A DNA stretch of 32,000 nucleotides from Candidatus Scalindua sp. (GCA_031316235.1 JALDRA010000001.1:270001-302000); one strand, 5' to 3'; shown: positions 4,333-26,648, numbered from the stretch's first letter. Numbers and translations are program-made. Notes: generated from the letters alone by a model not told the origin.

Positions 4333-4444
4333 TATACTAAAACCGATTTGGTTTTCGGTTTTACCGGAAACCAAATCCTGGTGAAGGTATACTCGCTCAA
4401 TTTTATCTCGGATATTATCCGAAATCCAGTATGAGATGAGTATA
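4333..4444 (+). repeat. Two-hairpin dispersed repeat, copy 1 (short form, 112 bp)
   Basis: tatactaaaaccgatttggttttcggttttaccggaaaccaaatcctggtgaaggtatactcgctcaattttatctcggatattatccgaaatccagtatgagatgagtata. Termini are TATACT/AGTATA. It ends 26 nt from the kinase stop codon. Confidence 0.9.
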
Positions 4445-4469
4445 GTGAAAATGTTAGCTTACGGAATAG

Positions 4470-6587
4470 TTAAGTTGTCGGTACTTCCGGGCTTTTTTCA
4501 CTTTTCAAGGGAAGGCACATCCTCAAGGACATTAATATTTTATCTGCAGGCTCACCAAGTTCGGAGTAAGGCTGTATGTTATAATTACAACTCTTCGTCT
4601 CTGATTCTTTGATGCTCACTAAATTTTTATATATTGAGCCCACTAAATGCTTCAGGTCTAATTCTGAAAATGATTTCGTTTGTCTGGCTGTTGGAGAATC
4701 TTTTATAGTATCTGTCTTCACATTCTTGCCATCATCGTTGATCCCGCCCTCTGCAGAAACATAACTATGTGTCTTATTTCTCGTCATACATTTAACTATT
4801 TCGAAAAGGATTGAAAACGGTATTGGTTTTCCGTTTGTGTCTGTCAAATAGTACCTGATAATGGGGTTTATTTTCATAGACTTCAGGTATCCATGGAGCA
4901 ATTCATTAGCACCAAGCCGTGATGTCTGGGTTCGGTGTATTATATAGCCGAAAACCGTTTTTTCCTTTAATTCAAATAAAGATTGCTTTTTAAACTTCAT
5001 AAGCTCCAAATCAAAATCAGTAGAATATTTACCATAGTTATTGGCTTTTATCTCTTCCTCAACTAAATGTGTTTCATCCAGACATAAAGCAATAGCCAAT
5101 GTCATGCAGGAACCATGTATTTTCTTTATATCTTCATTTTCCTGTGATAGTGATGGCTCCAGGCATTTTACGTAAAATTTTTCCGGGTTTTTCCCCCCGG
5201 ATGACAGAAAATACAAGATAGAGCCTAATGAGAAAATATCACTATGTTGACTTGTCTGCTTAACGATATAAGCATGGTAATACAACTTGGGTACAATTGG
5301 TATTATTTTTGTCTTTACCGTGACAATAAATAAGTTATCTTCGATTCGTATATCTTCAATCTTGGTAATTTGCCTTGCATTTTCTTTACTTCCAAAAAAG
5401 ACCTCTTGACTTTCAAGCCAGTCTCCCGGTTCAAGTATTTTATCACCTATATTGAGAAATGTTATTGTTGTATGGGTGTCATCATCGTTACTCTTGCCAT
5501 CTAAAATGGTAAAATGGATTTCATAACCGTTATCAATTTGTTCCGGGGCTCGGAAAGGTATCGTTCCTAATGCCAAAGCACCTGGTTCCTTAGAACTTCT
5601 GGCCATTGTGTCAGAACCGTTTATGATCGAATTAACACCGCTTACAAAACCCAGATCGGAAATCTTAATGTTGAAATAATTAATTTCAGGAGGCTGTAAC
5701 GAAATTAAAAAATTGCCAGGCTTGATATCCCTGTGTGCCAATGCGCCGTCTTCAGATATTGTCTCATGAATATTTCGTACTGATGCTAATATTTGTGTAA
5801 ATAAATCTATTATGATTCGATATTTCAGCGGATTAGAAAGTTTCCCTATTAATCGTAAAATATTAATACCGCTGAAGTCACTTATTCCGCCTATCTCTAC
5901 CCGCTCTTCTAATTGTGCTTTGTTATTCAAATCATCAAAGAGTTTCCTTATAAATACCTCTTTTCTGTTTCTAAATTCAGTCAAAGCATACCCAAGCTTA
6001 TCACTTACCGCATACAATGTGTGATCACGCCAAGGATGTTGATAGGTAATCAAATCATCCAAAGTACCATGCTCTGCCCTCATTACAAAAAAATCGCCTT
6101 GCAGTTTATCAAGAAACTCTTTAGAAAGATTGTTTACAATACTTTCATTATTTCTCCTTGAGGATTCCGCATATTGTTCTCTGCTGACAAATTCTAAAAC
6201 CTCCTTTTCGTCTTCAGTCTCTTCTCTAAGAATATTTTCATAAGGAGGAGAAGTAAAAATATTGGAGAAACCGACATACTGCACAAAATGGTCAAATTTA
6301 TCTATTCCAAATGTTCTTGTCTTGTTTATCTCCTCGTAGAATCTTCTTAATGCAATTTGAGAAAACATTAAACTTTGATCATCATATTTAAGAAATTTAA
6401 TAGCATAAAACTCAGTTGCACTTGAAGGGTTAGATGAATTGGAAGCCAATGCTACATTAGCATATCTACCGCTCCCCATAATTACCGGTTTTTCATCATA
6501 TAAGATAAAAAATATTTCTTTAATAATCTTTTTTCCTTTTGTATCTTCCAATCCTGTAGCAATGTATAAAGGAATTGCTTTAACCAT
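4470..6587 (-). CDS. Atypical Hanks-type Ser/Thr protein kinase with several large insertions and an uncharacterised ~250-aa C-terminal region
   Basis: Numbering follows the 713-aa track ORF. Gly loop GSGRYANV (46-53), AIK Lys72, HRDIKPGN (293-300), DLG (319-321), APE (355-357), DIFSLG (458-463). The track start at 6611 is TTG. The ATG at 6587 is preceded by GGAG with a 5-nt spacer, so I prefer it. Confidence 0.75.
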   Translation of the reverse strand: MVKAIPLYIATGLEDTKGKKIIKEIFFILYDEKPVIMGSGRYANVALASNSSNPSSATEFYAIKFLKYDDQSLMFSQIALRRFYEEINKTRTFGIDKFDHFVQYVGFSNIFTSPPYENILREETEDEKEVLEFVSREQYAESSRRNNESIVNNLSKEFLDKLQGDFFVMRAEHGTLDDLITYQHPWRDHTLYAVSDKLGYALTEFRNRKEVFIRKLFDDLNNKAQLEERVEIGGISDFSGINILRLIGKLSNPLKYRIIIDLFTQILASVRNIHETISEDGALAHRDIKPGNFLISLQPPEINYFNIKISDLGFVSGVNSIINGSDTMARSSKEPGALALGTIPFRAPEQIDNGYEIHFTILDGKSNDDDTHTTITFLNIGDKILEPGDWLESQEVFFGSKENARQITKIEDIRIEDNLFIVTVKTKIIPIVPKLYYHAYIVKQTSQHSDIFSLGSILYFLSSGGKNPEKFYVKCLEPSLSQENEDIKKIHGSCMTLAIALCLDETHLVEEEIKANNYGKYSTDFDLELMKFKKQSLFELKEKTVFGYIIHRTQTSRLGANELLHGYLKSMKINPIIRYYLTDTNGKPIPFSILFEIVKCMTRNKTHSYVSAEGGINDDGKNVKTDTIKDSPTARQTKSFSELDLKHLVGSIYKNLVSIKESETKSCNYNIQPYSELGEPADKILMSLRMCLPLKSEKSPEVPTT

Positions 6588-6782
6588 TTTTTCTCCAATT
6601 TCACTAACCAATAATTATAAATGACACTGAAACAACTCACCTGATTCCTTTATTCAGTACGAGAAAAAAGCCGGGCAGTTGTCTTATAAATATCTTACCG
6701 TCTCAGAAGCATTATAATCACAATCCTTATTAATGGAGAGAGCGGCTCTTTATCTTTCAATAAAAATAACCGATTACAATGT

Positions 6783-6843
6783 CCAACAAATCCAAAATAC
6801 CGGATTGTATGCTGATGGGGTACCGATCAGGGTATTGAGTATA
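6783..6843 (+). repeat. Possible degenerate relic of the two-hairpin repeat
   Basis: Shares cggattgtat (6801-6810) and the terminal gagtata (6837-6843) with the long-form copies, in the same order but with different spacing. The match is weak. Confidence 0.2.
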
Positions 6844-6942
6844 TAACAGGTACTGCTTCCTTACAAGTAATTTTTTGCACTAACATACCAAAGCTGAAAA
6901 CAGATTATTCGTTTTTTTATCTTTTCAAAATGAGTGAGAAGA

Positions 6943-7176
6943 TTATCTTTCGCTCAGAACAAAAAGATAGATCTGAAACGAGAATTTCTGTATATTTACT
7001 TCAGATAGCATTTGAAAGGATACCTTGTAGTTCAACAGGACATTAACCGTATCACTGTTATTGGCAACAACTGGTTTTACCGCTGCTCTTCTCTCAATTG
7101 TGGACCGACTGACATTCCAGCTGTTCCGATCTAAATTTCTTTTGATGCATTTCAATTTCATAACTGGTATACTCAC
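6943..7176 (-). CDS. Hypothetical small protein (77 aa), downstream member of an overlapping ORF pair
   Basis: GTG start overlaps the stop of the upstream ORF (GTGA, 7173-7176). There is only a vague HicA-like pattern (KCIKRNLDRNSW...TVNV), and the GSH catalytic motif is missing. Confidence 0.25.
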   Translation of the reverse strand: MSIPVMKLKCIKRNLDRNSWNVSRSTIERRAAVKPVVANNSDTVNVLLNYKVSFQMLSEVNIQKFSFQIYLFVLSER

Positions 7177-7439
7177 AGGAATTGAATTTCTGATCTCTGC
7201 CAGGCTGCACTTGTTTCGTAAAGAAAATCAGGGAAAATGCCGTAATCTTCGCTGGTGCAGACGGAGTTTGTGGTTCTATCTGCGCTATACTTTTCCGCAG
7301 CCCTAATTTGTCCCCCTATGCGATACGCCTGTTTCATGGATGACTGTAATGACCTTAACATTGGTAAATATGCTTCTTTTACCACCCCTTTACCATCAGA
7401 AAAGGAAACCTCTGTAAAATAAGACGATGAATTGTCCAT
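7173..7439 (-). CDS. Hypothetical small protein (88 aa), upstream member of an overlapping ORF pair
   Basis: ATG at 7439. It overlaps the next ORF by 4 nt. No recognisable motif. Confidence 0.25.
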   Translation of the reverse strand: MDNSSSYFTEVSFSDGKGVVKEAYLPMLRSLQSSMKQAYRIGGQIRAAEKYSADRTTNSVCTSEDYGIFPDFLYETSAAWQRSEIQFL

Positions 7440-7603
7440 TCTGCAATTTTGATCTTAGTAGTGTTGACCTTATAAAGACCTGTGAGGGCTGCCTTACCTC
7501 TAAAGGTTGCACGATGATAAGATGCCCTAATTGTCGATATGAAACTATCCCTGATCCCGATCTGTTAAGAGAGATCAAGAGGATGAGAAAGAAGAAGAAA
7601 TAA
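7427..7603 (+). CDS. Small zinc-ribbon protein (58 aa), not in the supplied ORF track
   Basis: My translation: MNCPFCNFDLSSVDLIKTCEGCLTSKGCTMIRCPNCRYETIPDPDLLREIKRMRKKKK. It has three CxxC knuckles plus one extra Cys and a basic tail. There is an in-frame TAA at 7415-7417 upstream, and the ORF ends 29 nt before the next plus-strand gene. Confidence 0.5.
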   Translation: MNCPFCNFDLSSVDLIKTCEGCLTSKGCTMIRCPNCRYETIPDPDLLREIKRMRKKKK

Positions 7604-7632
7604 AGACCTTCAAGAGAGCACTCGCTTTTATC

Positions 7633-8067
7633 ATGAAAAACAGCCAGACACCTGAAAAAAATGTCGGAAATGCAGCAAACCTGATCATCTTTCTCGGCAT
7701 ACTTTATACGTGCTTAAGCATTGCTTCTATTTCAGGATGCAGTTACCTTGCATCAAGGGGATACGGTATCACGAGTATTATCATTGGCTCTACCATAGTA
7801 GGGTCAGGGTACGGTACCCGTTATGGAAGTAATATATCGTTATACTCAGCGACCTTTCTCTTTGGAACACTCGCCCTCTATTTTACGTATACCTTTTTTA
7901 TCAACCCTGCCATGAGCCCAATCCTTCGTTCTGGTTTGTGCATATGGGCCGGAAGCAGGTTAGTTAGGGTTTTTCCTGAAATGAAGATGCTAAAAGAGAC
8001 AGGTTCTTCTCCTGATAAAGAGAGCCGTTATAAAAGCTTTTTTCTCAAAAGAACACGGCAGAAATAA
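7633..8067 (+). CDS. Small integral membrane protein (144 aa, about 3-4 TM segments)
   Basis: ATG at 7633. Hydrophobic stretches are LIIFLGILYTCLSIASI, ITSIIIGSTIVGSG and ATFLFGTLALYFTYTFFI, followed by a basic C-terminal tail. Confidence 0.55.
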   Translation: MKNSQTPEKNVGNAANLIIFLGILYTCLSIASISGCSYLASRGYGITSIIIGSTIVGSGYGTRYGSNISLYSATFLFGTLALYFTYTFFINPAMSPILRSGLCIWAGSRLVRVFPEMKMLKETGSSPDKESRYKSFFLKRTRQK

Positions 8068-8112
8068 TCTTAATCGGTTCAATAACCTACTGGAGATACA
8101 CCCTCCCCCCGC

Positions 8113-8212
8113 TATACTAAAACCGATTTGGTTTTCGGTTTTACCGGAAATCAAATCCTGGTGAAGGTATACTCGCTCAATTTTATCCGAAATCCAGTAT
8201 GAAATGAGTATA
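8113..8212 (+). repeat. Two-hairpin dispersed repeat, copy 2 (100 bp deletion variant)
   Basis: Same as copy 1 except for one stem transition (aaaccaaatc to aaatcaaatc), gagatg to gaaatg, and loss of 12 nt (ctcggatattat), which removes one arm of the distal inner hairpin. Confidence 0.9.
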
Positions 8213-8296
8213 TCTCCAAAATGGTGTAAATTATAATGCGGAATTTACCAGTTCGCTTCAGCTGATCAGCAGTTACAGTTTTCAATAGTATTTATT

Positions 8297-8325
8297 TTGA
8301 CTCAGGTTCAGCGTGATGGTAATAT
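8297..8325 (+). promoter_or_regulatory. Sigma70-like promoter candidate upstream of argG
   Basis: TTGACT (8297-8302), 17-nt spacer, TAATAT (8320-8325). It lies about 50 nt upstream of the argG ATG. Confidence 0.45.
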
Positions 8326-8377
8326 GCGTTTTTCACGTATATTCTAACAATTTATGCATTTTGAGGTAAAACGAGTA

Positions 8378-9586
8378 ATGGGAAAAAAGAAGGTTGTTCT
8401 GGCATATTCAGGAGGACTTGATACCTCTGTCGCCATTAAATGGATACAAGAAAAGTATAAAATGGACGTAATTGCCTTGAGCATTGATTTGGGAGCAGAA
8501 AAAGATCTCAAACCTGCAGAAAAAAAGGCACTCCAGATCGGTGCGATTAAATCAATGACCATAGAAGCAAAAGAGGAATTTATCGATTCCTTTATCTTTC
8601 CAGCCCTGCAGGCCGGCGCTCTTTATGAGAAAGTGTATCCGCTGGCAACTGCCCTGGGAAGACCACTGATTGCAAAGATACTCGTTGATACCGCAAAGTC
8701 TGAAGGGGCGACCGCTGTTGCTCATGGTTGCACCGGCAAAGGTAATGATCAGGTCAGGTTTGACGTTGCCATAAACACCCTTAATCCATCTCTGCAGATA
8801 ATCGCACCGCTGCGGGAGTGGAATATGACACGAAACGATGCAATAGAATATGCTAAAAAGAACGGAATACCCGTTGAGGTGACCAAAAAGAGTCCGTACA
8901 GTATTGATGAGAACATCTGGGGGAGAAGTATTGAGTGCGGTGTTCTTGAAGATCCATGGATAGAACCACCCGAAGAGGTATACAAATGGACAAACGAGAT
9001 AAACAAAACACCTGATACACCAACTTATCTGGAGATTGGTTTTGAGAAAGGCATTCCTGTTTCTCTCAACGGAAAAGAGAGAGATGGTCTCAGCTTGATA
9101 CAGGAACTGAACCAGATTGCAGGGGAGAATGGAGTGGGCCGGATAGACCATCTGGAGAACCGCGTTGTCGGAATTAAATCGAGAGAAATCTATGAATCTC
9201 CTGCAGCCATATTGCTCTTTAAGGCACATCATGCATTAGAAGAGATTACCATGACAAAAGATGCCTTGAGATTTAAAGATCTGGTGTCAACGCAATACTC
9301 TGATATGGTCTACAGCGGTTTATGGTTTTCAACATTCCACCAGGATTTAACCGCCTATGTCCTCAGTAGTCAGCGTTTTGTAACCGGTACAATACGCATA
9401 AAACTATTAAAAAGTAACTGTTCCGTCGTTGGAAGAAAGTCACCGTTCTCATTATATACACGCTCCCTTGCGACATATGACAAAGGAGACACCTTCGATC
9501 ATAATGCAGCAACCGGCTTTATCAAGATTTTCGGTTTAGCAACCAAGACACAGGCACAGATCCAGAAAAATGCAGCAGTATTGTGA
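8378..9586 (+). CDS. argG: Argininosuccinate synthase
   Basis: MGKKKVVLAYSGGLDTS ATP-pyrophosphatase motif, plus HGCTGKGNDQVRF and ENRVVGIKSREIYE. The track ORF begins 8 codons earlier (8354). ArgG proteins normally begin just before the VLAYSGGLDTS motif. Confidence 0.95.
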   Translation: MGKKKVVLAYSGGLDTSVAIKWIQEKYKMDVIALSIDLGAEKDLKPAEKKALQIGAIKSMTIEAKEEFIDSFIFPALQAGALYEKVYPLATALGRPLIAKILVDTAKSEGATAVAHGCTGKGNDQVRFDVAINTLNPSLQIIAPLREWNMTRNDAIEYAKKNGIPVEVTKKSPYSIDENIWGRSIECGVLEDPWIEPPEEVYKWTNEINKTPDTPTYLEIGFEKGIPVSLNGKERDGLSLIQELNQIAGENGVGRIDHLENRVVGIKSREIYESPAAILLFKAHHALEEITMTKDALRFKDLVSTQYSDMVYSGLWFSTFHQDLTAYVLSSQRFVTGTIRIKLLKSNCSVVGRKSPFSLYTRSLATYDKGDTFDHNAATGFIKIFGLATKTQAQIQKNAAVL

Positions 9587-9595
9587 GAAACAGCG

Positions 9596-9905
9596 ATGAA
9601 GATTCTGGTAATTGGTGCAGGAACTGCAGGCGGTTACCTTGGAGGATTGCTTGCCAGGGGAGGAGAAGACGTTACCTTTGATGCAAGGGGTGATTACCTC
9701 GCATCAATTAATGCATCAGGCCTCAGAAGAAGTTACCGAGTCATGGGAAATACTCCACTACTGCTTCGGAAAATTAATAATTATAGGAGAATTGGACAGG
9801 AGGGTATCAGACAGGAGTCAGATGATTTCTGAAACTTTTAAGAAGGCCGGCATTCCCTGTTCTATCTCTGATGATATCCAGCTTGAGAGAATAGCTAATG
9901 ATTGA
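9596..9905 (+). pseudogene. Decayed remnant of 2-dehydropantoate 2-reductase (PanE/ApbA family)
   Basis: Frame 1 gives MKILVIGAGTAGGYLGGLLARGGEDVTFDARG, a Rossmann N-terminus. Another frame continues with GKLIIIGELDRRVSDRSQMISETFKKAGIPCSISDDI. About 100 codons remain where roughly 300 are expected. Confidence 0.6.
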
Positions 9906-9960
9906 GGTATCAGTGTCAGCTTTTTAACAAATCATTGTATTGCAGCCTTGAGAGCCACTT

Positions 9961-10455
9961 CTATTGCTTTAAGGAGCACAGGGTTCGCCTCATTTGCTTT
10001 ATACCGCTCAGCCACATTTCTCTTTCAGGCGCTGTCAGCGCTGATTTGCCGATTGCCTGTTCAAGGTTTTCAAGAAACCTGATTTCCATACTCCCAGCCC
10101 CCCTGACTTCCCCCCGGTTTTCAGCGATCGCGTTATAAGGGCTGGCAGCGTTCATGTAACGTATGCCATTGTTTGTCAACCACGCACAGGTTGACAGCGT
10201 CAACAAGCCCGGAAGAGATAAGCTTTTTTAAAGGTTTCCTGATAGTTTTTTCTTTAAATTCATATTCTTCTATAATAGCCTCAAAGGTCTTAATTTTGCT
10301 GGTGCCGCATTGTTTCCAGAGAGTATAAAGATTTTCAAGTATGAATTGTTCAAAGGGAGATTTTTCCATAGTTGAAATTCATCATCCGATACGGTCTCAA
10401 AAAAAAATAGCTCACCATGGCCGTTCTGACGGGTACGGTGAATAATTACTTTCAA
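9961..10455 (-). pseudogene. Possible frameshifted remnant of an unknown (winged-helix-like?) gene
   Basis: Three consecutive minus-strand ORF fragments (10455-10270, 10369-10133, 10206-9961) sit in three different frames and overlap each other. The middle fragment contains KTIRKPLKKLISSGLVDAV. Alternatively, only the 78-aa middle ORF is real. Confidence 0.3.
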
Positions 10456-10509
10456 ATCGTCTTTCAGTATAGAGAAGCTGCCAACGCTGACATGCGGTAA
10501 CCATTTCTG

Positions 10510-11907
10510 CTACATCATGAACCTGGTCACAAACCACCAGGTGATAATACTTCCGACATAACCAAGCGCAATGATAGGTGCCCATTTTATATGAGACATG
10601 AATGTATAGTGTTCTCTGTTAACACCCATAACAGCGACACCTGCCGCCGATCCTATCGACAAGAGACTTCCTCCCACACCGGTAGTCAAGGTGATGAGCA
10701 ACCATTGATCGAGTCCCATCGGCATGTCCATCTTAAGCACTGCATACATAAGGGGTATATTGTCTCCAACGGCAGAAACAATTCCAATCGCCACATTTGC
10801 AAACGTATATCCAAGGGTACCGTACAAAGCATCTCCAACTACGGCAAGGTGCCCCATATACTGCAATGCCCCTACAGCCGTCAATACTCCAAAAAAGAAG
10901 AGCAGGGTATCGAACTCCACCTGTTCCACTTTTTTAAAAAAATCGTAGCTTGATACATCCCTTCTCTCTTTTCCAGGGCCCGATTGGTTCCTTAAAAATT
11001 TCCCTTCCCCCCAGTGTTGCATGTAATACGATACGAACATGAGAAATCCCATACCCAGCATCATACCCATAAAAGGAGGTAGATGGAGGAATTGATGAAA
11101 AGAGACACCCAAAGCAATGGTGAGAACACCAAAAAATATGGTCCTTCTGGCACCCGGCTTAAGAGCTGCAGTTTCCTTACCGCATTCAGGTTTTCCCCTG
11201 GGTATCCATAAACTCATGATAAAAGCCGGAACAAGCCAGTTGACAAGAGAGGGGAGAATCAGATAGAGGAACTTCAGCGTCTCAACTTTTCCCTCCATCC
11301 AAACCATCAATGTCGTAATATCTCCAAAAGGACTCCATGCGCCGCCGGCATTAGCAGCCACTACAATGTTGACAAAGGCCGGTACTATGAATTTCTTATT
11401 ACCGCCACTTACCGCCAATGCTACCGTTGACATAAGCATGGCGCTGGTCAGATTGTCTGCAAATGGAGAGATGATAAAAGTCAGTCCTCCTGTGGCCCAG
11501 AAGAGGGACTTATAACCCATCCCCCTGGATAACAGCTTTGCACGGATGGCCTGAAATACGTTAAGGGAACTTAGGGTATTAATATAAGTCATGGCTACCA
11601 GGAGAAAGAAAAAAAGACCTCCGATCTCTGCAATGAGGTGTTCAATGAATTCATGAGTTCCACCCCCATGCCTTACCTCATAGAAAATGGTACTATCCTT
11701 CCGCAATGAATATGTTGTGGTTGCAGTATGTCCGACTCCATGCATCGCCTCATAAACACCAATGCACAGCCACATCAAACAACTGACCAATACGATTGGC
11801 TTTGACTTCCTGAGGTGTAGTTTATCCTCAAATATGATAAGAATATAACCAATAAAGAACAAAAACAGTGAGAAGTAACCAACCCAGCTATTCACCAAGT
11901 TCGTCAT
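10510..11907 (-). CDS. nhaD: Na+/H+ antiporter, NhaD family
   Basis: 465 aa and polytopic. The N-terminus IIFEDKLHLRKSKPIVL is typical of NhaD. Also ANAGGAWSPFGDITTLMVW and VGDNIPLMYAVL. Confidence 0.8.
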   Translation of the reverse strand: MTNLVNSWVGYFSLFLFFIGYILIIFEDKLHLRKSKPIVLVSCLMWLCIGVYEAMHGVGHTATTTYSLRKDSTIFYEVRHGGGTHEFIEHLIAEIGGLFFFLLVAMTYINTLSSLNVFQAIRAKLLSRGMGYKSLFWATGGLTFIISPFADNLTSAMLMSTVALAVSGGNKKFIVPAFVNIVVAANAGGAWSPFGDITTLMVWMEGKVETLKFLYLILPSLVNWLVPAFIMSLWIPRGKPECGKETAALKPGARRTIFFGVLTIALGVSFHQFLHLPPFMGMMLGMGFLMFVSYYMQHWGEGKFLRNQSGPGKERRDVSSYDFFKKVEQVEFDTLLFFFGVLTAVGALQYMGHLAVVGDALYGTLGYTFANVAIGIVSAVGDNIPLMYAVLKMDMPMGLDQWLLITLTTGVGGSLLSIGSAAGVAVMGVNREHYTFMSHIKWAPIIALGYVGSIITWWFVTRFMM

Positions 11908-11909
11908 GC

Positions 11910-11937
11910 TATACCCCCTTTAAAGGAAATGAGTATA
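11910..11937 (+). repeat. Mini-fragment carrying the right terminus of the dispersed repeat
   Basis: tataccccctttaaaggaaatgagtata. The last 12 nt (gaaatgagtata) are identical to the terminus of copy 2. It abuts the nhaD start codon (11907). Confidence 0.4.
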
Positions 11938-12042
11938 CAATTAACCAAAAACGGTAAAATTCGCTCCTCTACCGGCAGAAATCGGCTGTTAATGTAAGAA
12001 CTCCCCATTTCAAAGTTTGTGAATTAAAGAATGGCCACATTA

Positions 12043-12216
12043 TATACTAAAACCGATCCGGTTCTAGATTTTTCTAAAAACCAATGCCTGGTTAATGATA
12101 TCCTTGATGCTAACCCCATACTTCCTTATATGAAAACCAGACTTAATATGCTCATCTCATACTGGATTTCGGATAAAATCCGAGATAAACCGGTATTCAT
12201 GTACCTTTAATATACT
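12043..12216. repeat. Composite or degenerate locus of the dispersed repeat (copy 3)
   Basis: A diverged left unit in + orientation (tatactaaaaccgatccggtt..., from 12043), then the right unit in reverse orientation (tatgctcatctcatactggatttcggataaaatccgagataaa, from 12147). Confidence 0.75.
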
Positions 12217-12351
12217 CCTGCCCATGACAAACTGAAGAATCAATCGAAATATGCTGATTCACACAAGCACCCTCCTCACATTCCTCTACATTTTCAAAAT
12301 TTTCCCTGTCACCTGAAAAGGCAGCCCCGGGAATTGACCAGAACTATCCAT

Positions 12352-18630: not shown

Positions 18631-18659
18631 TTGAAGAAATCACTCATTACAATTATACT
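18631..18659 (+). promoter_or_regulatory. Sigma70-like promoter candidate upstream of the PIN-domain gene
   Basis: TTGAAG (18631-18636), 17-nt spacer, TATACT (18654-18659). It lies 58 nt upstream of the ATG at 18717. Confidence 0.35.
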
Positions 18660-18716
18660 TAGTCCTCATTAACCTGTACAATTCACTGAAATCTGCATTT
18701 CTTACAAAAATACAGC

Positions 18717-19331
18717 ATGGATAGAGCAAAAAAAAACAAAAAGAGAAAGAGTTTGAAAGAAGAAATATTTGTCATCGATACAAGCATCTTTACTAATAAG
18801 GAGGTAAGTAAGTCGTTTGGAAAGACACCGACAACCGCTTTAAGAAAATTTTTACGCCTGATTAATAAATTCGAAGGGCCTTATTTCTACATGCCGCCCT
18901 CTATTTACAGTGAACTCATGAATTTTATCGATGTTGAAAAAATACCAAAAGATCTCCAGATTAAAATCTTCCAGAAGCCGCCGAAAAAATACGAGATGAG
19001 TGTTCCATCCTTTTTGCTTTATGAGTTGATCGAAGATGTCCGTCTGCGCATTGATAAGGGTTTGAGAGTTGCAGAACAGGCTGTAAGGAACGTAATGACG
19101 AATACCGAACCCGAAAACATCACAAATCTACGGAAAAAATACCGCTCTGCATTACGGGAAGGTATCATTGACAGCACTGAAGATGTTGATCTGATCCTCC
19201 TGGCAAAGGAGCTCGATGGTATTCTGGTTACCGCCGATACGGGAATTATGACCTGGGCAGACAAACTGGGCATACGTTTCATTGAATCAAGAAACCTCCG
19301 GGGGATTCTTGACAGCTTAATCAAAATGTGA
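18717..19331 (+). CDS. PIN-domain protein of the 'RNA ligase partner' (MJ_0950-like) family
   Basis: PIN acidic residues in IFVIDTSIF (D21), [18 protein letters not shown] and LVTADTGI. It is adjacent to, and its 3' end overlaps, a Pab1020-type RNA ligase gene. Confidence 0.7.
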
Positions 19332-20453
19332 AAGACCTTCCCAGTATTTCCGGATAATTTCGTACGTAGGATAACATCTCCTCTCAAATTTTACATGCCA
19401 ATAGTTCCCTATCTTTCTCTGGTTGATTAATACCGCATTTACGCTGCATTTATGAAAATGATCGAACAGCTTCTGTATGCTTTTCTCATGAATGAGCCTT
19501 ACATGAAACTCTTCAGCAACCATTTCTCCAGAGATCGCTTTCTTTGCACTCTCAAATAGTGGGAGTAACAGAGATTCCCCGGTCTTCTGCATGATAGTTT
19601 TATCAAGCGGGAGCTCATTGTCCAGAAGGTAAAAAATTACTCTGAATAGCCTCTGGGTAAAAAACTCTGCCGGAATTTCCAACATCAAACCAGAAGTTAC
19701 TCTCATGTCACGGTAACACGAACCTGCTGTAACGTATTTTACCATTTTTTCATCCGGACTCACCGGCTTTAACACAACGCCTTCACACCCTCTGTCATTA
19801 AGCTCTTTCAGGACTCTTTTTATCCTTCCTATATCTGAGTTAGTGTGTCTTCCAAAGCAGGTTACCGTGGGTATCTTATACCTGTCGAACAATCTGTACT
19901 TCTCTTCTGTCGGGACGTGTTTGTCCGTATTTTTCGTTCTTATGTCGAATGCGAAGAACTTAACGTCCTCCTTTACATAGGAAGGATATCCTCTATTATA
20001 GGGGTTTTCGGGACCAGCTATTTCCCCACACACTATCAAATGCGGATTATCGCTGAAAAATTCTTCACTGTTAAAGAAATCTCCTACTCTATCGGTAGTA
20101 AATGGACAGACATAACTTCCTCGTGTGAAGGCGAACACATTACCCCCTATCTCAGCAACTCTTACGTTGTAGCCATCCACCTTTTCCTCAATATAAAAGG
20201 GTCTGTTAAAAGCTGCTTTTATACCACTTTCTAACCGCATAATTCTTGCTATCTGTGGAAAATGGAAAATGATATCGGACTCGTTAACGACCGAACCTTT
20301 CTCTAGTTGTCCAACTTTTTTGACAAATCGATAATAGGTAAAACCATCGAACTCATCAGCAACTACCTTGTGGTTATCCAGTGCTTCTCTCCACTGATCT
20401 TCTGTTATATTAACCTTTGAGAGTGTTTCCAGAATCCCTGACATTTTATTCAC
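19317..20453 (-). CDS. ATP-dependent RNA ligase, Pab1020/Rnl3-like (archaeal type)
   Basis: Nucleotidyltransferase motif [12 protein letters not shown] (Lys91), motif III-like [13 protein letters not shown], motif [10 protein letters not shown], motif V MVKYVT. Length is 378 aa. Confidence 0.8.
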
Positions 20454-20640
20454 CCGATGAAATTCTTTATCGTTTAAGGTTCTCCGTTGATTATGTTACA
20501 GGGGAAATTTTATACCATTATCCCTTTCGCATGAATCATTACATTGCCATATCCCGCAAATTCTCCTGAAGCAAAAGCAGCAGGATAGCATGATTATTGC
20601 TTCAACGATCAATAGGGAATGCATTTGCTGAATCATAAAG

Positions 20641-20904
20641 TCACACACGTGTTAAATCAAGAGGAAAACATATCGGTAGAAATCGATCTTGGTCTTTGAT
20701 CTCCCACAAATAGAGTCCATGTCGATTGCACATTTTCGGGTTCTTTTCATGGAGATCCGACAAATCCCGAAAAAACCATTTCTGCAGCAGTAAATAGAGC
20801 GTATAATGACAGGGAAATGCGGATACGAAGCGGGGTCTACCCTGAATCACTCTCAATATCCAGGCATCTGCACATTGTCCGTAATTCGGATGAAGGCAAT
20901 TTAA
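20641..20904 (-). pseudogene. N-terminally truncated transglutaminase-like (Cys-His-Asp core) fragment
   Basis: The open frame reads ...NYGQCADAWILRVIQGRPRFVSAF..CHYTLYLLLQKWFFRDLSD. This resembles the transglutaminase core pattern GxCxDxA...GxPxRxVSxY...HxW...W..FD. The putative catalytic Cys lies upstream of every possible start codon (first TTG at 20856). An in-frame stop lies at 20905-20907. Confidence 0.35.
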
Positions 20905-21046
20905 CTATCGGTCAATAAGAAGATCTCTCCCCTTCTCTGCAGAACAGTTTAAATATTATTTCTTATTGTCTGCTCCCCCTATTTATGGTAAGGTGTGCAG
21001 TTAGATTTGAGAAGCACATTCAGGACAAATTATCACTGTATCTAAC

Positions 21047-21289
21047 ATGACAGGAAAATTAGAAAAAAAAAGATCCATATGCAATAATTGCCATAACCAG
21101 CACGGCTGTTTGACAGAGGAACCTTTATGCTTGCTGGTGGAACGAAAGAAATCAGAAATTTCTCTTTCCGGAAAAGATCTTATGAAAAAGAGAGGTCGTC
21201 TCAGAGAGTGTCGGAAATGTGCTCATTTCAATTTATGCTGGGCTCAGGAAACCTATAAGTTGGCTATACGAAAACTGAAATCGAGATAG
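21047..21289 (+). CDS. Hypothetical Cys-rich small basic protein (80 aa)
   Basis: ATG start. It has 7 Cys, including CNNCHNQHGC, PLC and CRKCAHFNLC. No signal peptide and no recognisable family. Confidence 0.35.
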   Translation: MTGKLEKKRSICNNCHNQHGCLTEEPLCLLVERKKSEISLSGKDLMKKRGRLRECRKCAHFNLCWAQETYKLAIRKLKSR

Positions 21290-21415
21290 ATCGTTTCACA
21301 GACCACCACACTTTTCGAGATTGTATCACGGCTACCTGTGCATACCGTAATCTGATTCACAAACCCCTGCAACCCGTTACCTGCTTGTGCCACGCATTAC
21401 CATACAAACAAATTA

Positions 21416-21444
21416 TTGACGATATGGTATTTATATCATATAAC
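21416..21444 (+). promoter_or_regulatory. Sigma70-like promoter candidate upstream of glgP
   Basis: TTGACG (21416-21421), 17-nt spacer, TATAAC (21439-21444). It lies about 80 nt upstream of the ATG at 21523. Confidence 0.4.
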
Positions 21445-21522
21445 TTACATCTTTATTGTAAAGGCTTCAGATCTGTTTGTCTGAGATAATTTATTAAGAA
21501 AATCAAAACTTTGGAGTACCTA

Positions 21523-24069
21523 ATGAACAGAGAAATCACACATAATGACCTTTCAAACAATAATTCTCCCTCAGCTGATTCCCTTAAGAAAGATGTCGAA
21601 TATCATATTAAAAATACACTGGGGCTTGGCTTAAGGGGTGTTACCACAGTCCATAAAGCGTTACAACAGAAACTTTTTCTCCACCTCTATAAAGCATTAG
21701 CGCTCGCCTTACGGGACAAAATCATGGATAAATGGATCGCCACAAACAGGACATATAAAGAAATAGACGCAAAACAGCTTTATTATCTCTCCGCAGAATA
21801 TTTACCTGGCAGGTTTCTTGGAAACAACGTGATAAATCTGGGGGCGCAGGGCGAGGTTGAAGCTCTTTTGAAAACTCTTGATTTAAACTTCAATGAATTA
21901 GAGAACAGGGAAATGGACGCTGGACTTGGTAACGGGGGTTTAGGCCGTTTAGCAGCATGTTTCCTGGATTCGATTGCCACCTTGGAACTACCCGGCCATG
22001 GATACGGTCTGCGTTACGATTACGGAATTTTTCGTCAGGAAATTCTCGATGGATACCAGATTGAGCACCCGGACCAGTGGCTTCAGCATGGAAACCCATG
22101 GGAAATTCAGCGAGAAGAGGATGCCGTAACCGTTACGTTTGGAGGGCTCATAAAAAGAGAGAAAAACTTAACGAATAAACAAAAGAGCGAAATTGTGGAT
22201 GGTGAAACGGTTTCTACAATGCCTTTTGATACCCCTGTTGTCGGCTTTGGCAACAATACCGTTAATACCTTAAGGTTATGGAGCACATCTGTTCCTGATT
22301 ACGAACAGTTTGATATTCAGGCGTTCGATCAGGGTGATTATGGAGAGGCCTTAAAAAATGTTCTTTGCCATGACGACCTGACAATGGTTTCCATTCTCTA
22401 TCCAAATGACAACCACGATTCAGGAAAACGACTGCGTTTAAAACAACAATATATTCTTGTATCAGCCAGTATCCAGGATATTATCAGGACATATAAAAAA
22501 AACCATTCGTCTTTTGACCTTTTCCACAAAAAAGTAGCTATTCAGATCAACGACACGCATCCATCCCTGGTGATCACAGAACTGATGAGGATCCTGGTAG
22601 ACCAGGAAGAAATTGACTGGGACCGGGCCTGGGACATCACCGTCAAGGCCTGCGCTTACACCAACCACACTGTCCTGAGTGAGGCGTTAGAACAATGGGA
22701 TGTAAGTATGATGAAGAAGATTCTTCCAAGGAATTTTGAGATTGTTCAAATCATCAACCATGACTTCTGTGTATTTGTAGGGAAACAATACTCAGGAGAC
22801 ATGGACCGTGTCCGTCGTGTTTCTATCGTGGAAGATGGAAAGGTGAAAATGGCGCATCTGGCTATCGTAGGCAGTCATTCGATCAACGGAGTAGCCAAAC
22901 TGCATACCCAGATTCTGAAAGAAGAAACACTGCGCGATTTTTACGAGATCTTTCCCGAAAAATTTAATTGTAAGACTAACGGTATTACTCCACGAAGATG
23001 GTTACTGAAATCCAACCCCGAACTCGCCAGTCTGATTACAGACAGAATCGGCAGCGGATGGATAACTGATCTGTCAGAACTTGAAAAACTGGAAAAGTAT
23101 GCAGATGATACCGGCTTCCTGAACAAGATCATGGAAATCAAGCTTCGGAACAAAGAGCGGTTAAAGGACTACGTATACAGACAAAATCCAGTCAAGGACG
23201 AAAAGGGTAAAATTGTTGAAAAGATAGAAGTCAACCAGGATTCAATATTTGATGTTCATGCCAAGAGACTGCATGAGTACAAAAGACAATTAATGAATGC
23301 CCTCCATATTCTCATGTTATATAATGAATTAAAAGGAAATCCCGACAAAGTAATCATACCGAGAACATTCTTTTTTGCAGCAAAGTCTGCCCCGGGATAT
23401 GAAATGGCAAAAACTATTATAAAATTTATCAACATCCTCGCACGAGTTATCAATAACGATCGAGACGTTAAGGGTATGATTACCGTCGTGTTTCTGGAAA
23501 ACTATAATGTATCGCTGGCAGAGATACTTCTGACGGCAGCTGATGTGAGTGAACAGATATCCACCGCAGGGCTTGAAGCTTCAGGGACAGGAAATATGAA
23601 GCTTGCCTTAAACGGAGCACTCACAATCGGAACGATGGATGGGGCAAATGTTGAAATGGCTGAAGAGATAGGAGAGGAAAATATGTTCATATTCGGGCTG
23701 AGAAGAGATGAGGTCAGACACTTAAAAGAAAACGGATATAATCCCGGTGAAGAATGTAACAAATCAGGAGCTATCAAGAGAATCATCAACCAATTGTATT
23801 CAGAAGAATTGACTCATGTTCCGAAAGAAAGACAAATCCTCAAACGGATCGCAGATTCATTAATGCATGAGGATAAACATTTCATTCTCAAGGATTTAAT
23901 ACCCTATAAAGAGGCTCAGGATAAAGTATCAGAATTATATCGGGATAAAATTTCCTGGGCAAAAAAAGCCTTACTTAATATCGCAAGGTCGGGTAAATTC
24001 TCAAGTGATAGAACTATCAGAGAGTACAGTGATGAAATCTGGCATTTAAGTAAGATACCGATTAAATAA
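21523..24069 (+). CDS. glgP: Glycogen/maltodextrin phosphorylase
   Basis: GLGNGGLGRLAACFLDS, RLWS, and the PLP-Lys region EASGTGNMKLALNGALTIGTMDGANVE. The track start at 21511 is TTG. The ATG at 21523 has GGAG with a 6-nt spacer. Confidence 0.95.
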   Translation: MNREITHNDLSNNNSPSADSLKKDVEYHIKNTLGLGLRGVTTVHKALQQKLFLHLYKALALALRDKIMDKWIATNRTYKEIDAKQLYYLSAEYLPGRFLGNNVINLGAQGEVEALLKTLDLNFNELENREMDAGLGNGGLGRLAACFLDSIATLELPGHGYGLRYDYGIFRQEILDGYQIEHPDQWLQHGNPWEIQREEDAVTVTFGGLIKREKNLTNKQKSEIVDGETVSTMPFDTPVVGFGNNTVNTLRLWSTSVPDYEQFDIQAFDQGDYGEALKNVLCHDDLTMVSILYPNDNHDSGKRLRLKQQYILVSASIQDIIRTYKKNHSSFDLFHKKVAIQINDTHPSLVITELMRILVDQEEIDWDRAWDITVKACAYTNHTVLSEALEQWDVSMMKKILPRNFEIVQIINHDFCVFVGKQYSGDMDRVRRVSIVEDGKVKMAHLAIVGSHSINGVAKLHTQILKEETLRDFYEIFPEKFNCKTNGITPRRWLLKSNPELASLITDRIGSGWITDLSELEKLEKYADDTGFLNKIMEIKLRNKERLKDYVYRQNPVKDEKGKIVEKIEVNQDSIFDVHAKRLHEYKRQLMNALHILMLYNELKGNPDKVIIPRTFFFAAKSAPGYEMAKTIIKFINILARVINNDRDVKGMITVVFLENYNVSLAEILLTAADVSEQISTAGLEASGTGNMKLALNGALTIGTMDGANVEMAEEIGEENMFIFGLRRDEVRHLKENGYNPGEECNKSGAIKRIINQLYSEELTHVPKERQILKRIADSLMHEDKHFILKDLIPYKEAQDKVSELYRDKISWAKKALLNIARSGKFSSDRTIREYSDEIWHLSKIPIK

Positions 24070-24119
24070 AATTAATTTGACTGATAAAACACCTGCCCAA
24101 TAAGCATGAGGAAGCCGCA

Positions 24120-24147
24120 GCAGCTGTGCCGATATGGCAACAGCTGC
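24120..24147 (+). terminator. Hairpin downstream of glgP (weak intrinsic terminator candidate)
   Basis: gcagctgtgcc-gatat-ggcaacagctgc: an 11-bp stem with one bulged A and a 5-nt loop, 51 nt after the stop codon. It is followed by a T/C-rich tract, not a clean T-run. Confidence 0.3.
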
Positions 24148-24472
24148 ATGCGTCTTCTCTTCTCTCAGCTTTCAAATCCACTCTCTTCTTTACAGTCCTG
24201 TCCTGTTTCCTTTTTCTCTCATGTTCCGTGAGTTCTCTGGAAAGGAAATGACAAGATCAGAGAAGAAACCTGATAGTAAGCTGTAGTGCTGCAGTCACTT
24301 GTCCGCCTTTGGAATACCAGAAATATTTTCTTAAGACTCTTTAAGCAAGATTCTGGTAATAACAAAAGTCTCTTGCCGTGATTTCCTCTTTGAGTTACAT
24401 GATGTGGAATGCTTAATAGTGTGCTCGTGCAATTCGAGGCATAAAAGGATTTTATGTTTCTGTATTCTCTTG

Positions 24473-24611
24473 TATACTCATCTCATACTGGATTTCGGAT
24501 ACAATCCGAGATAAAATTGAGCGAGTAAAGTCCTCGGCGCTTTTTGTCCGGGGATACCTTCACCAGGATTTGGTTTCCAGTAAAACCGAAAACCAATTCG
24601 GTTTTAATATA
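24473..24611 (-). repeat. Two-hairpin dispersed repeat, copy 4 (long form, 139 bp, inverted)
   Basis: The reverse complement differs from copy 5 at only 4 positions, all in the left hairpin unit. It carries the same 27-nt internal insertion. Confidence 0.9.
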
Positions 24612-24717
24612 TCAATTTTATGGGTTTCTGTTTTCTGATTAATTGTTTCATTATTAAACATTCTTTGTCAAAATCCTGAAATTTTCGATTCAACCTGATA
24701 TTTTTCAAAAAATAATG

Positions 24718-24746
24718 TTGACTTATGGTAATAATTTCACTAGCAT
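24718..24746 (+). promoter_or_regulatory. Sigma70-like promoter candidate
   Basis: TTGACT (24718-24723), 17-nt spacer, TAGCAT (24741-24746). It lies upstream of the ORF starting at 24795. Confidence 0.3.
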
Positions 24747-24794
24747 CATTGAGACTCAAAAAAGCAATTCTTTATCAATTAATTTTTTTACCCT

Positions 24795-25214
24795 TTGGCA
24801 AAAAAAAACTATTACACATTAATGGTTAACCAATTCTATCAATCAATTCTTTCATTAATTCTTATATGTAGTACTCTCTGCTCTTTCGGATTTGGAGAGC
24901 CTTGTACCTATGAGACTCAGTCAAAACATCAGCAAGCTGGGACTTCGATTGATTCACATAAGGATAGCTTTTCAAGTGGTATTATTGGTGATTACCGTGA
25001 TCATCTGAAATACCCTTTCACACCTTTTCAGGTTGAAAATTGGGAGGAGGGAGAAGATCCTGAAAAGAAACAAAGGATTCTTCTGGGATATTATTCCAAC
25101 GGAGATCAATTAACACATCAGATAAATGTGCTGCCGCTCCCGTCTGTCCCCTTATCGATTTGTGACCTTTACCATCCTGCCTACTACCTTCTATTTGAAG
25201 TATTCTTACTTTGA
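24795..25214 (+). CDS. Hypothetical secreted protein (139 aa)
   Basis: The TTG start gives a basic n-region (AKKN) followed by the hydrophobic core ILSLILICSTLCSF. An alternative ATG lies at 24822. No recognisable domain, so coding status is uncertain. Confidence 0.35.
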   Translation: MAKKNYYTLMVNQFYQSILSLILICSTLCSFGFGEPCTYETQSKHQQAGTSIDSHKDSFSSGIIGDYRDHLKYPFTPFQVENWEEGEDPEKKQRILLGYYSNGDQLTHQINVLPLPSVPLSICDLYHPAYYLLFEVFLL

Positions 25215-25421
25215 TTCCTTCTGCATAAGGAGCCTTTTGTTCAACCAATCTGCGCTGCTGCCTAAAGCACTTCATCAGTGTGTGGACGCATTGGTGATGT
25301 AAGCAGGTTTACAAGTTGAGGCTCTATCTATACCCTTTCTGCTGACCATCTCAGCTGAAAATATATCTGTTACAATTTTCTCATTTGTTTATAACAAGCA
25401 TTTAAAATGTGTGGAGCATTG

Positions 25422-26507
25422 ATGAAAAGACATTTCATACTCGTAAGCCTGATTGCCCTGTTATTCCATGCAGGCTGTGAAACAGAACACAGAGAACATA
25501 AAAAAGAGGATGTCAAATTTCTGGTTACCTGCCCGACGAGAAAAGACACTTCCATTACCAGGGATTACGTATGTCAAATCCATGCCATACAACATATTGA
25601 AATAAGAGCACTTGAAGGAGGCTACTTAGAGAAGACTTTTGTTGATGAAGGGCAGCTGGTAGAGAAAGGGCAGCTTATATTTCAGATCATGCCCGTCATA
25701 TACCAGGCCGAATTTGAGAAAGCACAGGCCGAAGCAGAAGGGGCAAAAATTGAATACTTAAATACCAAGTCGCTTGCGGACAACAATGTAGTATCTCCTA
25801 ATGAGTTGGCAATGAGTAAGGCCAGATTCGATAAAGCGAAGGCTGAAATGGACCTGGCCCAGGCACACTTGAGGTTTGCGGAGATCAGAGCTCCCTTTGA
25901 TGGTTTGATGGGCCGCTTCCAGGTAAGGCTTGGAAGCCTTTTGGAAGAAGGCGAACTGCTCACCACTTTGTCGGACAACAGTGAAATGTGGGTGTATTTC
26001 AATGTGCCGGAAGCGGAATATTTAGATTACAAAACAAGGAAAAAAAACGACAGCCCGGTAGAAGTCAAGTTACAAATGGCAAATAATCAGCTTTTTGAAC
26101 ACCCAGGAGTAGTTACCGCCATTGAAGCCGACTTTAACAACGAAACAGGCAATATTGCTTTCAGGGCAACATTTCCCAACCCGGAAGGACTGTTAAGGCA
26201 TGGGGAAACAGGTAATATCCTAATGACCAAAGCTCTCAAAAATGCACTGCTGATCCCGCAGAAAGTCACTTTTGAGATCATGGACAAGAAATACGTTTTT
26301 GTCATAGATGAAAACAATGTGGTAAGACCAAGACAAATTACTATAGGTGAAGAAATGACGCACATCTATGTGATAAAAGAAGGTTTGACTGAAAGCGATA
26401 AGATACTATTACAAGGTCTGCGCAAAGTAAGAGATAAGGATGTAATAACCTATGAATTTCAGGAGCCCGATTCGGTAATGGCTCACCTGGAATTATATGC
26501 AGAATAA
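25422..26507 (+). CDS. RND efflux periplasmic adaptor (membrane fusion protein, AcrA/MexA-like) lipoprotein
   Basis: Lipobox FHAGC. Also a biotinyl/lipoyl-like hairpin (GYLEKTFVDEGQLVEKGQLIFQI), a coiled-coil hairpin, and IRAPFDGLMG. The ATG at 25422 has GGAG with a 5-nt spacer. The track start is 25407. Confidence 0.9.
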   Translation: MKRHFILVSLIALLFHAGCETEHREHKKEDVKFLVTCPTRKDTSITRDYVCQIHAIQHIEIRALEGGYLEKTFVDEGQLVEKGQLIFQIMPVIYQAEFEKAQAEAEGAKIEYLNTKSLADNNVVSPNELAMSKARFDKAKAEMDLAQAHLRFAEIRAPFDGLMGRFQVRLGSLLEEGELLTTLSDNSEMWVYFNVPEAEYLDYKTRKKNDSPVEVKLQMANNQLFEHPGVVTAIEADFNNETGNIAFRATFPNPEGLLRHGETGNILMTKALKNALLIPQKVTFEIMDKKYVFVIDENNVVRPRQITIGEEMTHIYVIKEGLTESDKILLQGLRKVRDKDVITYEFQEPDSVMAHLELYAE

Positions 26508-26509
26508 TG

Positions 26510-26648
26510 TATACTAAAACCGATTTGGTTTTCGGTTTTACCGGAAACCAAGTCCTGGTGAAGGTATCCCCGGACAAAAAGCGCCGAGGACTTTACTCGC
26601 TCAATTTTATCTCGGATTGTATCCGAAATCCAGTATGAGATGAGTATA
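26510..26648 (+). repeat. Two-hairpin dispersed repeat, copy 5 (long form, 139 bp) inside the efflux operon
   Basis: It starts 3 nt after the MFP stop codon and ends 28 nt before the RND pump ATG. The 27-nt insertion ccccggacaaaaagcgccgaggacttt (26568-26594) is relative to the short form. Confidence 0.9.

Follow-up and report, generated by a model that had tools for sequence, protein, structure and literature searches.

What are the two-hairpin repeats of 100 to 139 nucleotides (nt) that recur between genes of Candidatus Scalindua, and what put them there? The question arises from a stretch of 32,000 nt of Candidatus Scalindua sp. (GCA_031316235.1, JALDRA010000001.1:270001-302000; the whole stretch is called the window below), in which a reading of the sequence alone had described five dispersed copies, here named c1 to c5. 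It is likely that the repeats represent a Candidatus Scalindua miniature inverted-repeat transposable element (MITE) that duplicates a TA dinucleotide and is moved in trans by a DDE transposase, most likely one of the IS630/Tc1-mariner family. The repeat family appears to be undescribed but of an ordinary, well-known kind, and it reveals no new mechanism. The gene content of the window is that of an ordinary chromosomal region (Wzz/tyrosine kinase, polysaccharide export, ArgG, CitMHS transporter, cytochrome c', DUF748, glycogen phosphorylase and an RND efflux operon), and the best homologues of its HlyD and ArgG proteins came from Candidatus Scalindua, a marine anammox bacterium of the Planctomycetota.

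Repeat detection over the whole window, with each copy read together with its flanks, confirmed all five loci. The 19-nt core of the right-hand unit (TATCCGAAATCCAGTATGA) had 5 exact matches in the window compared with 0.02 expected from shuffles, and the 33-nt left hairpin had 4 matches with at most 2 mismatches compared with none expected. Copy c1 (4333-4444, + strand) is a short form of 112 nt including both flanking TA dinucleotides, and consists of a left and a right hairpin unit. The left hairpin (4345-4377, +) has 15 pairs formed by GATTTGGTTTTCGGT and ACCGGAAACCAAATC, a TTT loop and one T.G pair in the + sense. The right hairpin unit (4388-4444, +) reads TATACTCGCTC...GAGATGAGTATA around the distal stem TCGGAT-ATT-ATCCGA. 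Copy c2 (8113-8212, +) is a short form of 100 nt, in which a deletion of 12 nt relative to c1 (TCTCGGATATTA) has removed the 5' arm and the loop of the distal right-hand stem. Copies c4 (24473-24611, - strand) and c5 (26510-26648, +) are long forms of 139 nt with 97% identity to each other. The difference between the 139-nt and the 112-nt form is a middle module of 27 nt (TCCCCGGACAAAAAGCGCCGAGGACTT), which forms a small hairpin by itself and was present within the window only in c4 (24528-24554, -) and c5 (26567-26593, +). The element proper, TACT...AGTA, measures 110 nt in the short form, 137 nt in the long form and 98 nt in c2, and is built from a left hairpin, none to two middle modules and a right hairpin.

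The two hairpins drawn in the sequence-only reading were reproduced by RNAfold for each intact copy on both strands, with free energies of -33 to -48 kcal/mol and z-scores of -4.2 to -7.3 against dinucleotide shuffles; c1 folded with -42 kcal/mol (z-score -6.85). The ends of the element are TACTAAAACCGATTTGGTTTTCGG and TACTCATCTCATACTGGATTTCGG. When the left end was compared with the reverse complement of the right end, 17 of 26 positions matched, the matching blocks being TATACT and then TGGnTTTCGG at positions 17-26. The repeat is imperfect and shorter than in many MITEs. In each big hairpin, the terminal repeat thus corresponds to the outer arm and is paired with its complement, the inner arm. 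The hairpins would be inherited parts of the element, that is, an end-binding sequence with its complement, and not an independently selected RNA structure.

Syntenic loci of relatives were obtained via HlyD and ArgG homologues and comprised L029, L030 and L031 (Scalindua AMX11 type), L032 (GCA_021646465), L033, and L034 and L035 (AMX11). Locus L033 belongs to a 2.9-Mb contig, and its ArgG is 92% identical to that of the window. The element profile gave no match at the positions of c1, c2 and c5 in any syntenic relative locus examined. At the HlyD/AcrB junction, the filled site of c5 in the window reads AATAATG-TA-(TACT...AGTA, 137 nt)-TA-AGTAAC...GGTAAAAAAG..ATG, and the empty site in four relatives (L029/L030/L031, L032) reads AATAATG-TA-AG...GGTAAAAAAG..ATG. 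Upstream of argG, the filled site of c2 reads CCCCGC-TA-(TACT...AGTA, 98 nt)-TA-TCTCCAAAATGG, and the empty site in L033 reads CCGCTC-TA-TCTCCAGAATGG. These two independent clean empty sites show a single TA in the relatives where two TAs flank the insert in the window. On this basis the two target copies lie at 8113-8114 and 8211-8212 for c2, and at 26510-26511 and 26647-26648 for c5. Of the two readings of the termini offered before, a 6-bp inverted repeat TATACT...AGTATA or a TA duplication around TACT...AGTA, the second was correct.

The two other intact copies gave less clear sites. The element was absent from the c1 site in L033, L034 and L035, where about 15 unrelated nucleotides were found and the junction was not clean. 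For copy c4, the surrounding stretch of about 560 nt on the 3' side of glgP (window 24070-24630) has no counterpart in AMX11 (L029/L030); the two become homologous again from about 24630, where a conserved AT-rich region precedes the efflux operon. As the whole stretch is missing in the relatives, no junction could be compared for c4. All copies, those of the window as well as those on four further contigs (metagenomic or genomic), are bounded by TA, and no longer duplication was seen. The left flanks (GATA, CGCTA, ATGTA, TGCTA, CAGATA and TCGTTA) have only the TA in common.

The copies c1, c2, c4 and c5 share 95-98% identity with each other; the argG, kinase and CitMHS genes share 84-86% identity between the window and L033, the closest relative. 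From the high identity of the copies and the empty sites it follows that the copies were inserted after the lineages had separated. Comparison of the sequences indicates that the four intact copies of the window arose from a recent amplification (burst) in this lineage, in which at least one TA-specific transposase would then have been active recently. Locus L033 has one diverged long-form copy (139 nt) that is 83% identical to the window copies and whose fold has decayed (z-score -0.6). In AMX11 a partial, degenerate copy was found (L030 20784-20896); it comprises a middle module as well as a right unit in which a hairpin is nested. These diverged and degenerate copies show that the family is older than the burst.

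The remaining copy, c3 (12043-12216), is a composite. Its left unit (+, about 12043-12100) has diverged to 60-67% identity to c1. It is followed by a spacer of about 45 nt of unrelated sequence, by a right unit in reversed orientation at 12147-12189 (95% identity), and by a short remnant, TACCTT..TATACT. Most likely c3 is an old copy adjoined by a second copy that is truncated and oppositely oriented. Both c3 and the L033 copy lie about 100-135 nt beyond the stop codon of the cytochrome c' gene and may represent a shared old insertion, the flanks being too diverged to decide. At this place, between CitMHS and cytochrome c', L033 (17268-18435) has three extra genes for an NTPase, a PIN_10/DUF5615 protein and a DUF433 protein, and the window has c3 only. 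The PIN_10/DUF5615 and DUF433 genes look like a toxin-antitoxin pair.

All five window copies are located outside open reading frames (ORFs) of at least 80 amino acids. Copy c1 lies 25-26 nt beyond the stop codon of a protein-kinase gene on the minus strand (4470-6611) and is therefore antisense to the kinase transcript. Copy c2 is located between a 144-amino-acid ORF and argG, in the sense direction to both. Copy c5 is inserted in the sense direction inside the RND efflux operon, 2-3 nt beyond the stop codon of the HlyD-type adaptor gene and 28 nt ahead of the AcrB start, and the ribosome-binding region of AcrB is undamaged. The distances of 26, 46 and 3 nt to a stop codon that had been given for three copies are correct. 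In the Logan short-read assembly of this organism, contigs break off within c1, c2 and c3, as contigs do at multi-copy repeats.

Two further segments had been proposed as possible relics of the element, and both were rejected, as they consist of conserved host sequence. The segment 6783-6843 aligns with intergenic sequence of L033 and L035, including the motif TGAGTATATA, at the orthologous position in these element-free relatives. The segment 11910-11937 represents the leader of the CitMHS transporter gene, conserved directly 5' of the start codon in 3 of 3 genomes.

The copies of 100-139 nt have no coding capacity, as this length is too small for any protein family and their open frames are merely read-through. 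The element must therefore be moved in trans. It would insert at TA dinucleotides and duplicate the TA by means of a transposase supplied from elsewhere, which would be a cut-and-paste DDE enzyme, most likely of the IS630/Tc1-mariner family. We infer both the family and the cut-and-paste mode, since cut-and-paste DDE transposases of the IS630/Tc1-mariner type are recognised by their insertion at TA and duplication of the TA, and this makes such a transposase the likeliest mobilising enzyme. For the IS630 element ISY100, insertion at TA with duplication of the TA was experimentally established, and roughly 24-30 bp of end sequence suffices in cis in the IS630/Tc1-mariner family (PMC2170065). 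Insertion sequences of the IS630 family have been reported in anammox genomes (PMC7814187).

Several points weigh against this explanation. A transposase gene with matching ends was not found, and the window and about 190 kb of related loci encode no transposase. The perfect terminal repeat comprises just 4 bp, or 6 bp with the TA, which is short for IS630-derived MITEs. The reversed solo right unit in c3 is explained by a transposon that moves as a whole unit only if a second insertion and deletions are assumed. Furthermore, the comparison of filled and empty sites cannot formally separate a TA duplication from a TA-carrying element that inserts beside a TA. The copy count, finally, covers the 5 copies in 32 kb and one more indicated by protein P0002 (see below).

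The very short perfect repeat could also point to a TA-duplicating MITE that is mobilised by a DDE transposase outside IS630, either from a subgroup of the IS5 family with TA-containing duplications of 2-4 bp or from an uncharacterised family. Scans for a partner element found none. The 18/19-nt core pattern of the right unit gave one chance match of 19-21 nt in Maritalea among representative genomes and 20 loci in a metagenome collection, all of them matching over 18-21 nt only; neither set, in which the host genome was not included, yielded a real copy. The viral contig scan gave 0 matches, and no match was obtained by blastn against a plasmid collection. An exact 2-bp TA duplication is, however, characteristic of IS630 among bacterial insertion sequences (PMC2170065), and elements of this family do occur in anammox genomes (PMC7814187). 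A transposase from outside IS630 is for these reasons considered very unlikely.

The strong hairpin below each end led to a second alternative, namely transposition of single-stranded DNA by an enzyme that recognises hairpins. The repeats would then be either REP/BIME-like units mobilised by a RAYT protein or palindromic derivatives of an IS200/IS605 element mobilised by a Y1 HUH transposase (TnpA), with the subterminal hairpins as recognition structures and the TA target adjoined, not duplicated. The modular build of the copies fits such a system, as the middle module occurs 0, 1 or 2 times and the right unit occurs alone and inverted in c3. The + strand folds slightly better than the - strand (-42 versus -38.5 kcal/mol), owing to a T.G pair that is kept in the + sense, and the filled and empty sites fit insertion beside a TA without duplication as well. 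The ends, however, are symmetric (TA-TACT...AGTA-TA) with an inverted repeat of 17/26 positions. The ends of IS200/IS605 elements are asymmetric and lack inverted repeats, and these elements insert 3' of a conserved target of 4-5 nt without duplicating it. The 2-nt target of the Scalindua element is far below that length, and its flanks share the TA only. REPs and BIMEs are defined as palindromic units of 20-40 nt with a conserved GTAG or CGTC head, absence of target duplication and an associated RAYT gene (PMC3733652, PMC2817692), the REPs being 20-40 nt long with GTAG/CGTC tags (PMC3733652). The copies have no GTAG/CGTC head, their moving unit is 110-137 nt long with a TA duplication, and no Y1 or RAYT gene was found in the loci examined. 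Single-strand transposition accordingly has only a very small chance of being the correct explanation.

The same points bear on the earlier comparison of the repeats with ERIC, BOX and REP sequences or MITEs. The likeness to a dispersed, non-coding, mobile-element-like repeat holds; REP and BOX are poor analogies, because the whole unit of about 110-137 nt moves with a TA duplication.

A third alternative assigns the function to the RNA. The repeats would be selected cis-acting RNA elements, such as a transcript stabiliser, an RNase III site, an attenuator or a terminator acting in one orientation, and not primarily selfish mobile elements. The folds are stable on either strand, three window copies lie just past stop codons, and transcripts of ERIC and Correia elements are reported to modulate neighbouring mRNAs (PMC2229807), which provides a precedent. 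The sequence-only reading had likewise seen a hint of selection on structure. For a covariation analysis, eight full copies were aligned after removal of middle modules and nested inserts, which gave 36 consensus pairs. A compensatory change was found in 1 of these 36 pairs (G-C to U-A, in L033), four pairs varied on one side with pairing kept, and about ten cells were broken. The RNAalifold covariation term was +1.16, and column shuffles reached the observed covariation score in 33 of 500 cases and the observed paired fraction in 59 of 500, so that the hint did not reach significance. An excess of G-U-preserving substitutions in the left stem (3 of 4) had also been noted. It vanished when the external copies were included, as about 3 stem transitions gave G.U and about 6 gave C.A in the + sense (the latter being G.U in the - sense), and was a small-sample effect.

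The orientation of the copies was examined with regard to termination. Relative to flanking genes it was mixed, which fits a mobile element: 2 copies were sense and 6 antisense, or 2 and 3 without the copies found by the open-frame search. Read in antisense, the left hairpin precedes GGUUUUAGUAUA. Among the antisense copies, c1, L028a and L033 are found 25-99 nt beyond the end of a gene, and the sense copies c2 and c5 are placed at sites that require read-through. A scan of the window for a terminator consensus flagged none of the intact copies c1, c2, c4 and c5; it gave 7 sites compared with 6.5 in shuffles, and the sole match inside the family was a 5-pair stem at 12051-12063 in the diverged left unit of c3. 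A function as terminator was rejected because the scan stayed at shuffle level, the antisense left hairpin with GGUUUU being only suggestive. The orientation pattern, which rests on six cases, is worth testing, and individual copies may affect neighbouring transcripts.

A search with the Rfam covariance models that covered both strands of the whole window gave no match at E<=1. With covariation at the level of shuffles, the fold lost in the old L033 copy and the same intergenic sites empty in close relatives, where the copies are therefore not needed, a selected RNA element is very unlikely.

A TA-duplicating MITE moved by a DDE transposase has several counterparts among known bacterial repeats. 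TA termini are also found in the bacterial MITEs RUP, Correia and ERIC (PMC2229807). RUP of Streptococcus pneumoniae is about 107 bp long, non-coding, multi-copy and mostly intergenic, and a transposase of the IS630 family is considered to move it in trans (PMC2229807). The Scalindua element resembles this IS630-Spn1-associated repeat in size, in being non-coding and multi-copy, in its TA termini and in insertion at TA. The partner insertion sequence of RUP is known from matching ends, whereas that of the Scalindua element was not found in the window or the related loci. The sequences are unrelated, the host belongs to another phylum (Planctomycetota), and the Scalindua element has a modular body of two hairpins with optional middle modules.

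Correia/NEMIS elements of Neisseria are 100-160 bp long, duplicate a TA, occur in size classes that differ by an internal segment, and give long hairpin transcripts; a shorter form has open frames and is fused to ORFs (PMC2229807). The Scalindua element shares the size range and the TA duplication, and its 112-nt and 139-nt forms correspond to such size classes. Correia elements have near-perfect terminal repeats of 24-26 bp and, in one class, an IHF site, whereas the terminal repeat of the Scalindua element is imperfect (17/26). No sequence similarity between the two is known. ERIC (also called IRU) is about 127 bp long, with perfect terminal repeats of 7 bp, TA termini, internal indel variants and a hairpin RNA, and is found in intergenic transcribed regions (PMC2229807). 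It is similar to the Scalindua element in length, in short perfect terminal repeats, in TA termini, in internal indel variants and in the hairpin. ERIC copies, however, are old and largely immobile, with orientation-dependent effects on mRNA reported, whereas the window copies are young (95-98% identity) and polymorphic between close lineages.

No named family had been recognised in the sequence-only reading, and none was found here in Rfam or the plasmid collection, nor was any description of MITEs in anammox bacteria found in literature searches.

As several reading frames through the element are open, further copies could be sought by searching translations of the element against protein databases, which contain ORFs called through copies. 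This search led to four proteins, and the contigs could be read for three of them (loci L026, L027 and L028). Copies of 113 nt were found at L026 10182-10294 (-) and at L027 1409-1521. The copy at L028 2050-2248 contains the middle module twice in tandem, between a left unit and a right unit, the latter with a nested hairpin of 33 nt, and a left unit with the same nested hairpin is located at L028 4800-4861, where it is cut by the contig end. With those described above, copies were also present in the L030 and L033 loci. The contig of L027 carries a repeat family common to Scalindua loci (see below), which suggests a Scalindua-like host.

The N-terminus of P0002 (KSSALFVRGYLHQDLVSGKTENQIGFSI) corresponds to the translation of c5 and marks a further long-form copy, which we infer to be located on the same 4.15-Mb contig as the window. 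Both P0001 (L028 2084-2623) and P0002 (cytochrome c; homocysteine S-methyltransferase) have N-terminal extensions that are translated element, probably because start codons were mis-called due to its open antisense frame. A full HMMER search with the peptide of the 113-nt variant showed 26 further proteins that carry the variant, most of them short and evidently spurious ORFs. Their flanking residues are all different, so that the family is widespread at independent sites. The top HMMER match, P0245, was rejected as a carrier, as it is an unrelated low-complexity repeat protein.

The 113-nt variant causes a net insertion of 111 nt, or 37 codons, with one fully open frame. In L026 it is inserted in frame inside the gene of a DEDDh exonuclease of the RNase_T family (P0004, L026 10001-10603). 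Residues 62-98 of P0004 are derived from the element, and the corresponding residues 58 and 59 of E. coli ExoX are contiguous. The insert separates the Exo I from the Exo II motif, and all three Exo motifs as well as the frame are intact. A second in-frame case is the phosphoribosyltransferase-like protein P0258 (ENA, 157-kb contig), which contains the translated element together with a nested module of 10 residues, NPPGLSAVRT, in place of six residues of T. thermophilus TT1426. Elsewhere P0258 lacks about 60 residues relative to TT1426, and it may be encoded by a decaying gene. The earlier statement that all copies are intergenic thus holds for the window but not for the family. In-frame insertion was seen for relatives of the window copies only; the variants of the window add 98, 110 or 137 nt and would therefore shift the frame.

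Insertion into genes in frame is the defining behaviour of the RPE elements of Rickettsia (PMC2229807). The 113-nt variant in the exonuclease and phosphoribosyltransferase-like genes resembles them in this behaviour, which does not imply homology: the window copies are all intergenic and frame-shifting in length, and sequences and hosts are unrelated. Fusion of MITE open frames to host ORFs is already a known property of bacterial MITEs (PMC2229807), and the in-frame cases therefore add colour, not novelty.

A second, smaller hairpin element of about 28-33 nt (CCTGTCTGCGTGCGTCCCTTACGCACAGGCAGG and variants) was observed at L028 2077-2109 and 4831-4861 and at L030 20811-20838. It occupies the loop of one of the two big MITE hairpins, left or right, in each case immediately following TTTT(A/G) and without visible duplication, and was not present in the window. 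The insert SPPGLSAVRTGK in P0258, P0259, P0261 and P0264 looks like its translation. The loop-specific insertion of the small hairpin resembles single-strand (HUH-type) targeting.

These observations can be combined into a broader reading, which we regard as unlikely. The MITE would be a modular hairpin element whose 37-codon variant was repeatedly fixed in frame and whose loops are a landing site for the second hairpin after TTTTA, and orientation-dependent selection would have left terminator-like antisense copies after genes and sense copies in operons. If this were true, the RPE-like "protein tinkering" would extend to free-living anammox Planctomycetota, and the landing site would imply single-strand (HUH-type) insertion into extruded MITE hairpins.

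For the annotation of anammox genomes, the MITE provides a repeat family with defined consensus, ends and target. It explains the fragmentation of short-read Scalindua assemblies at copies, as well as spurious N-terminal extensions or internal inserts of 37-47 residues in proteins (P0001, P0002, P0004, P0258). The filled/empty polymorphism between close Scalindua lineages is a ready strain marker. Natural experiments on the tolerance of such elements are provided by c5 in the RND efflux operon and by the enzymes with in-frame insertions.

Other small dispersed repeats were seen in the same loci, and Scalindua genomes appear to be rich in them. A different MITE-like family of about 195 nt with terminal inverted repeats of 18 bp (GTCCGGTTAGGTTTTTGC...GCAAAAACCTAACCGGAC) occurs at 9174-9368 of L029/L030, upstream of the AMX11 efflux operon. 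It is absent from this site in the window, and a related copy (L023 3842-3889) ends a Logan contig about 700 nt past the 3' end of the window. A third family of about 150 nt, with 78-84% identity between copies, was found at L027 676-854, L030 14388-14545, L035 1088-1236 and 9882-9988, and L033 15094-15248 and 16845-17001. One AMX11 copy of this family is located upstream of argG, and none was found in the window.

The loci also differed in gene content. In L033 and L035, spermine-synthase-like and radical-SAM genes (about 5 kb) are located between the kinase gene and the 144-amino-acid ORF. Of this interval about 1 kb is left in the window (6612-7632), namely the upstream intergenic part (6677-6879) and a 3' remnant of the spermine-synthase-like gene (7075-7599), and a spermine-synthase-like gene of 517 amino acids is located just outside the start of the window (L024 4549-6102). 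At 18717-20453 of the window, a PIN_5 ribonuclease gene (+) and a Pab1020-type RNA ligase gene (-) are convergent with a 3' overlap of 15 nt. The PIN_5 gene is present in AMX11 (L029/L030), where no RNA ligase gene was called between it and glgP. A protein of L032 (GCA_021646465.1, SOET01000027.1) is named "Candidatus Kuenenia sp."; the efflux adaptor of this locus is 86% identical to that of the window and its operon junction is Scalindua-like, so that the taxon label may be wrong.

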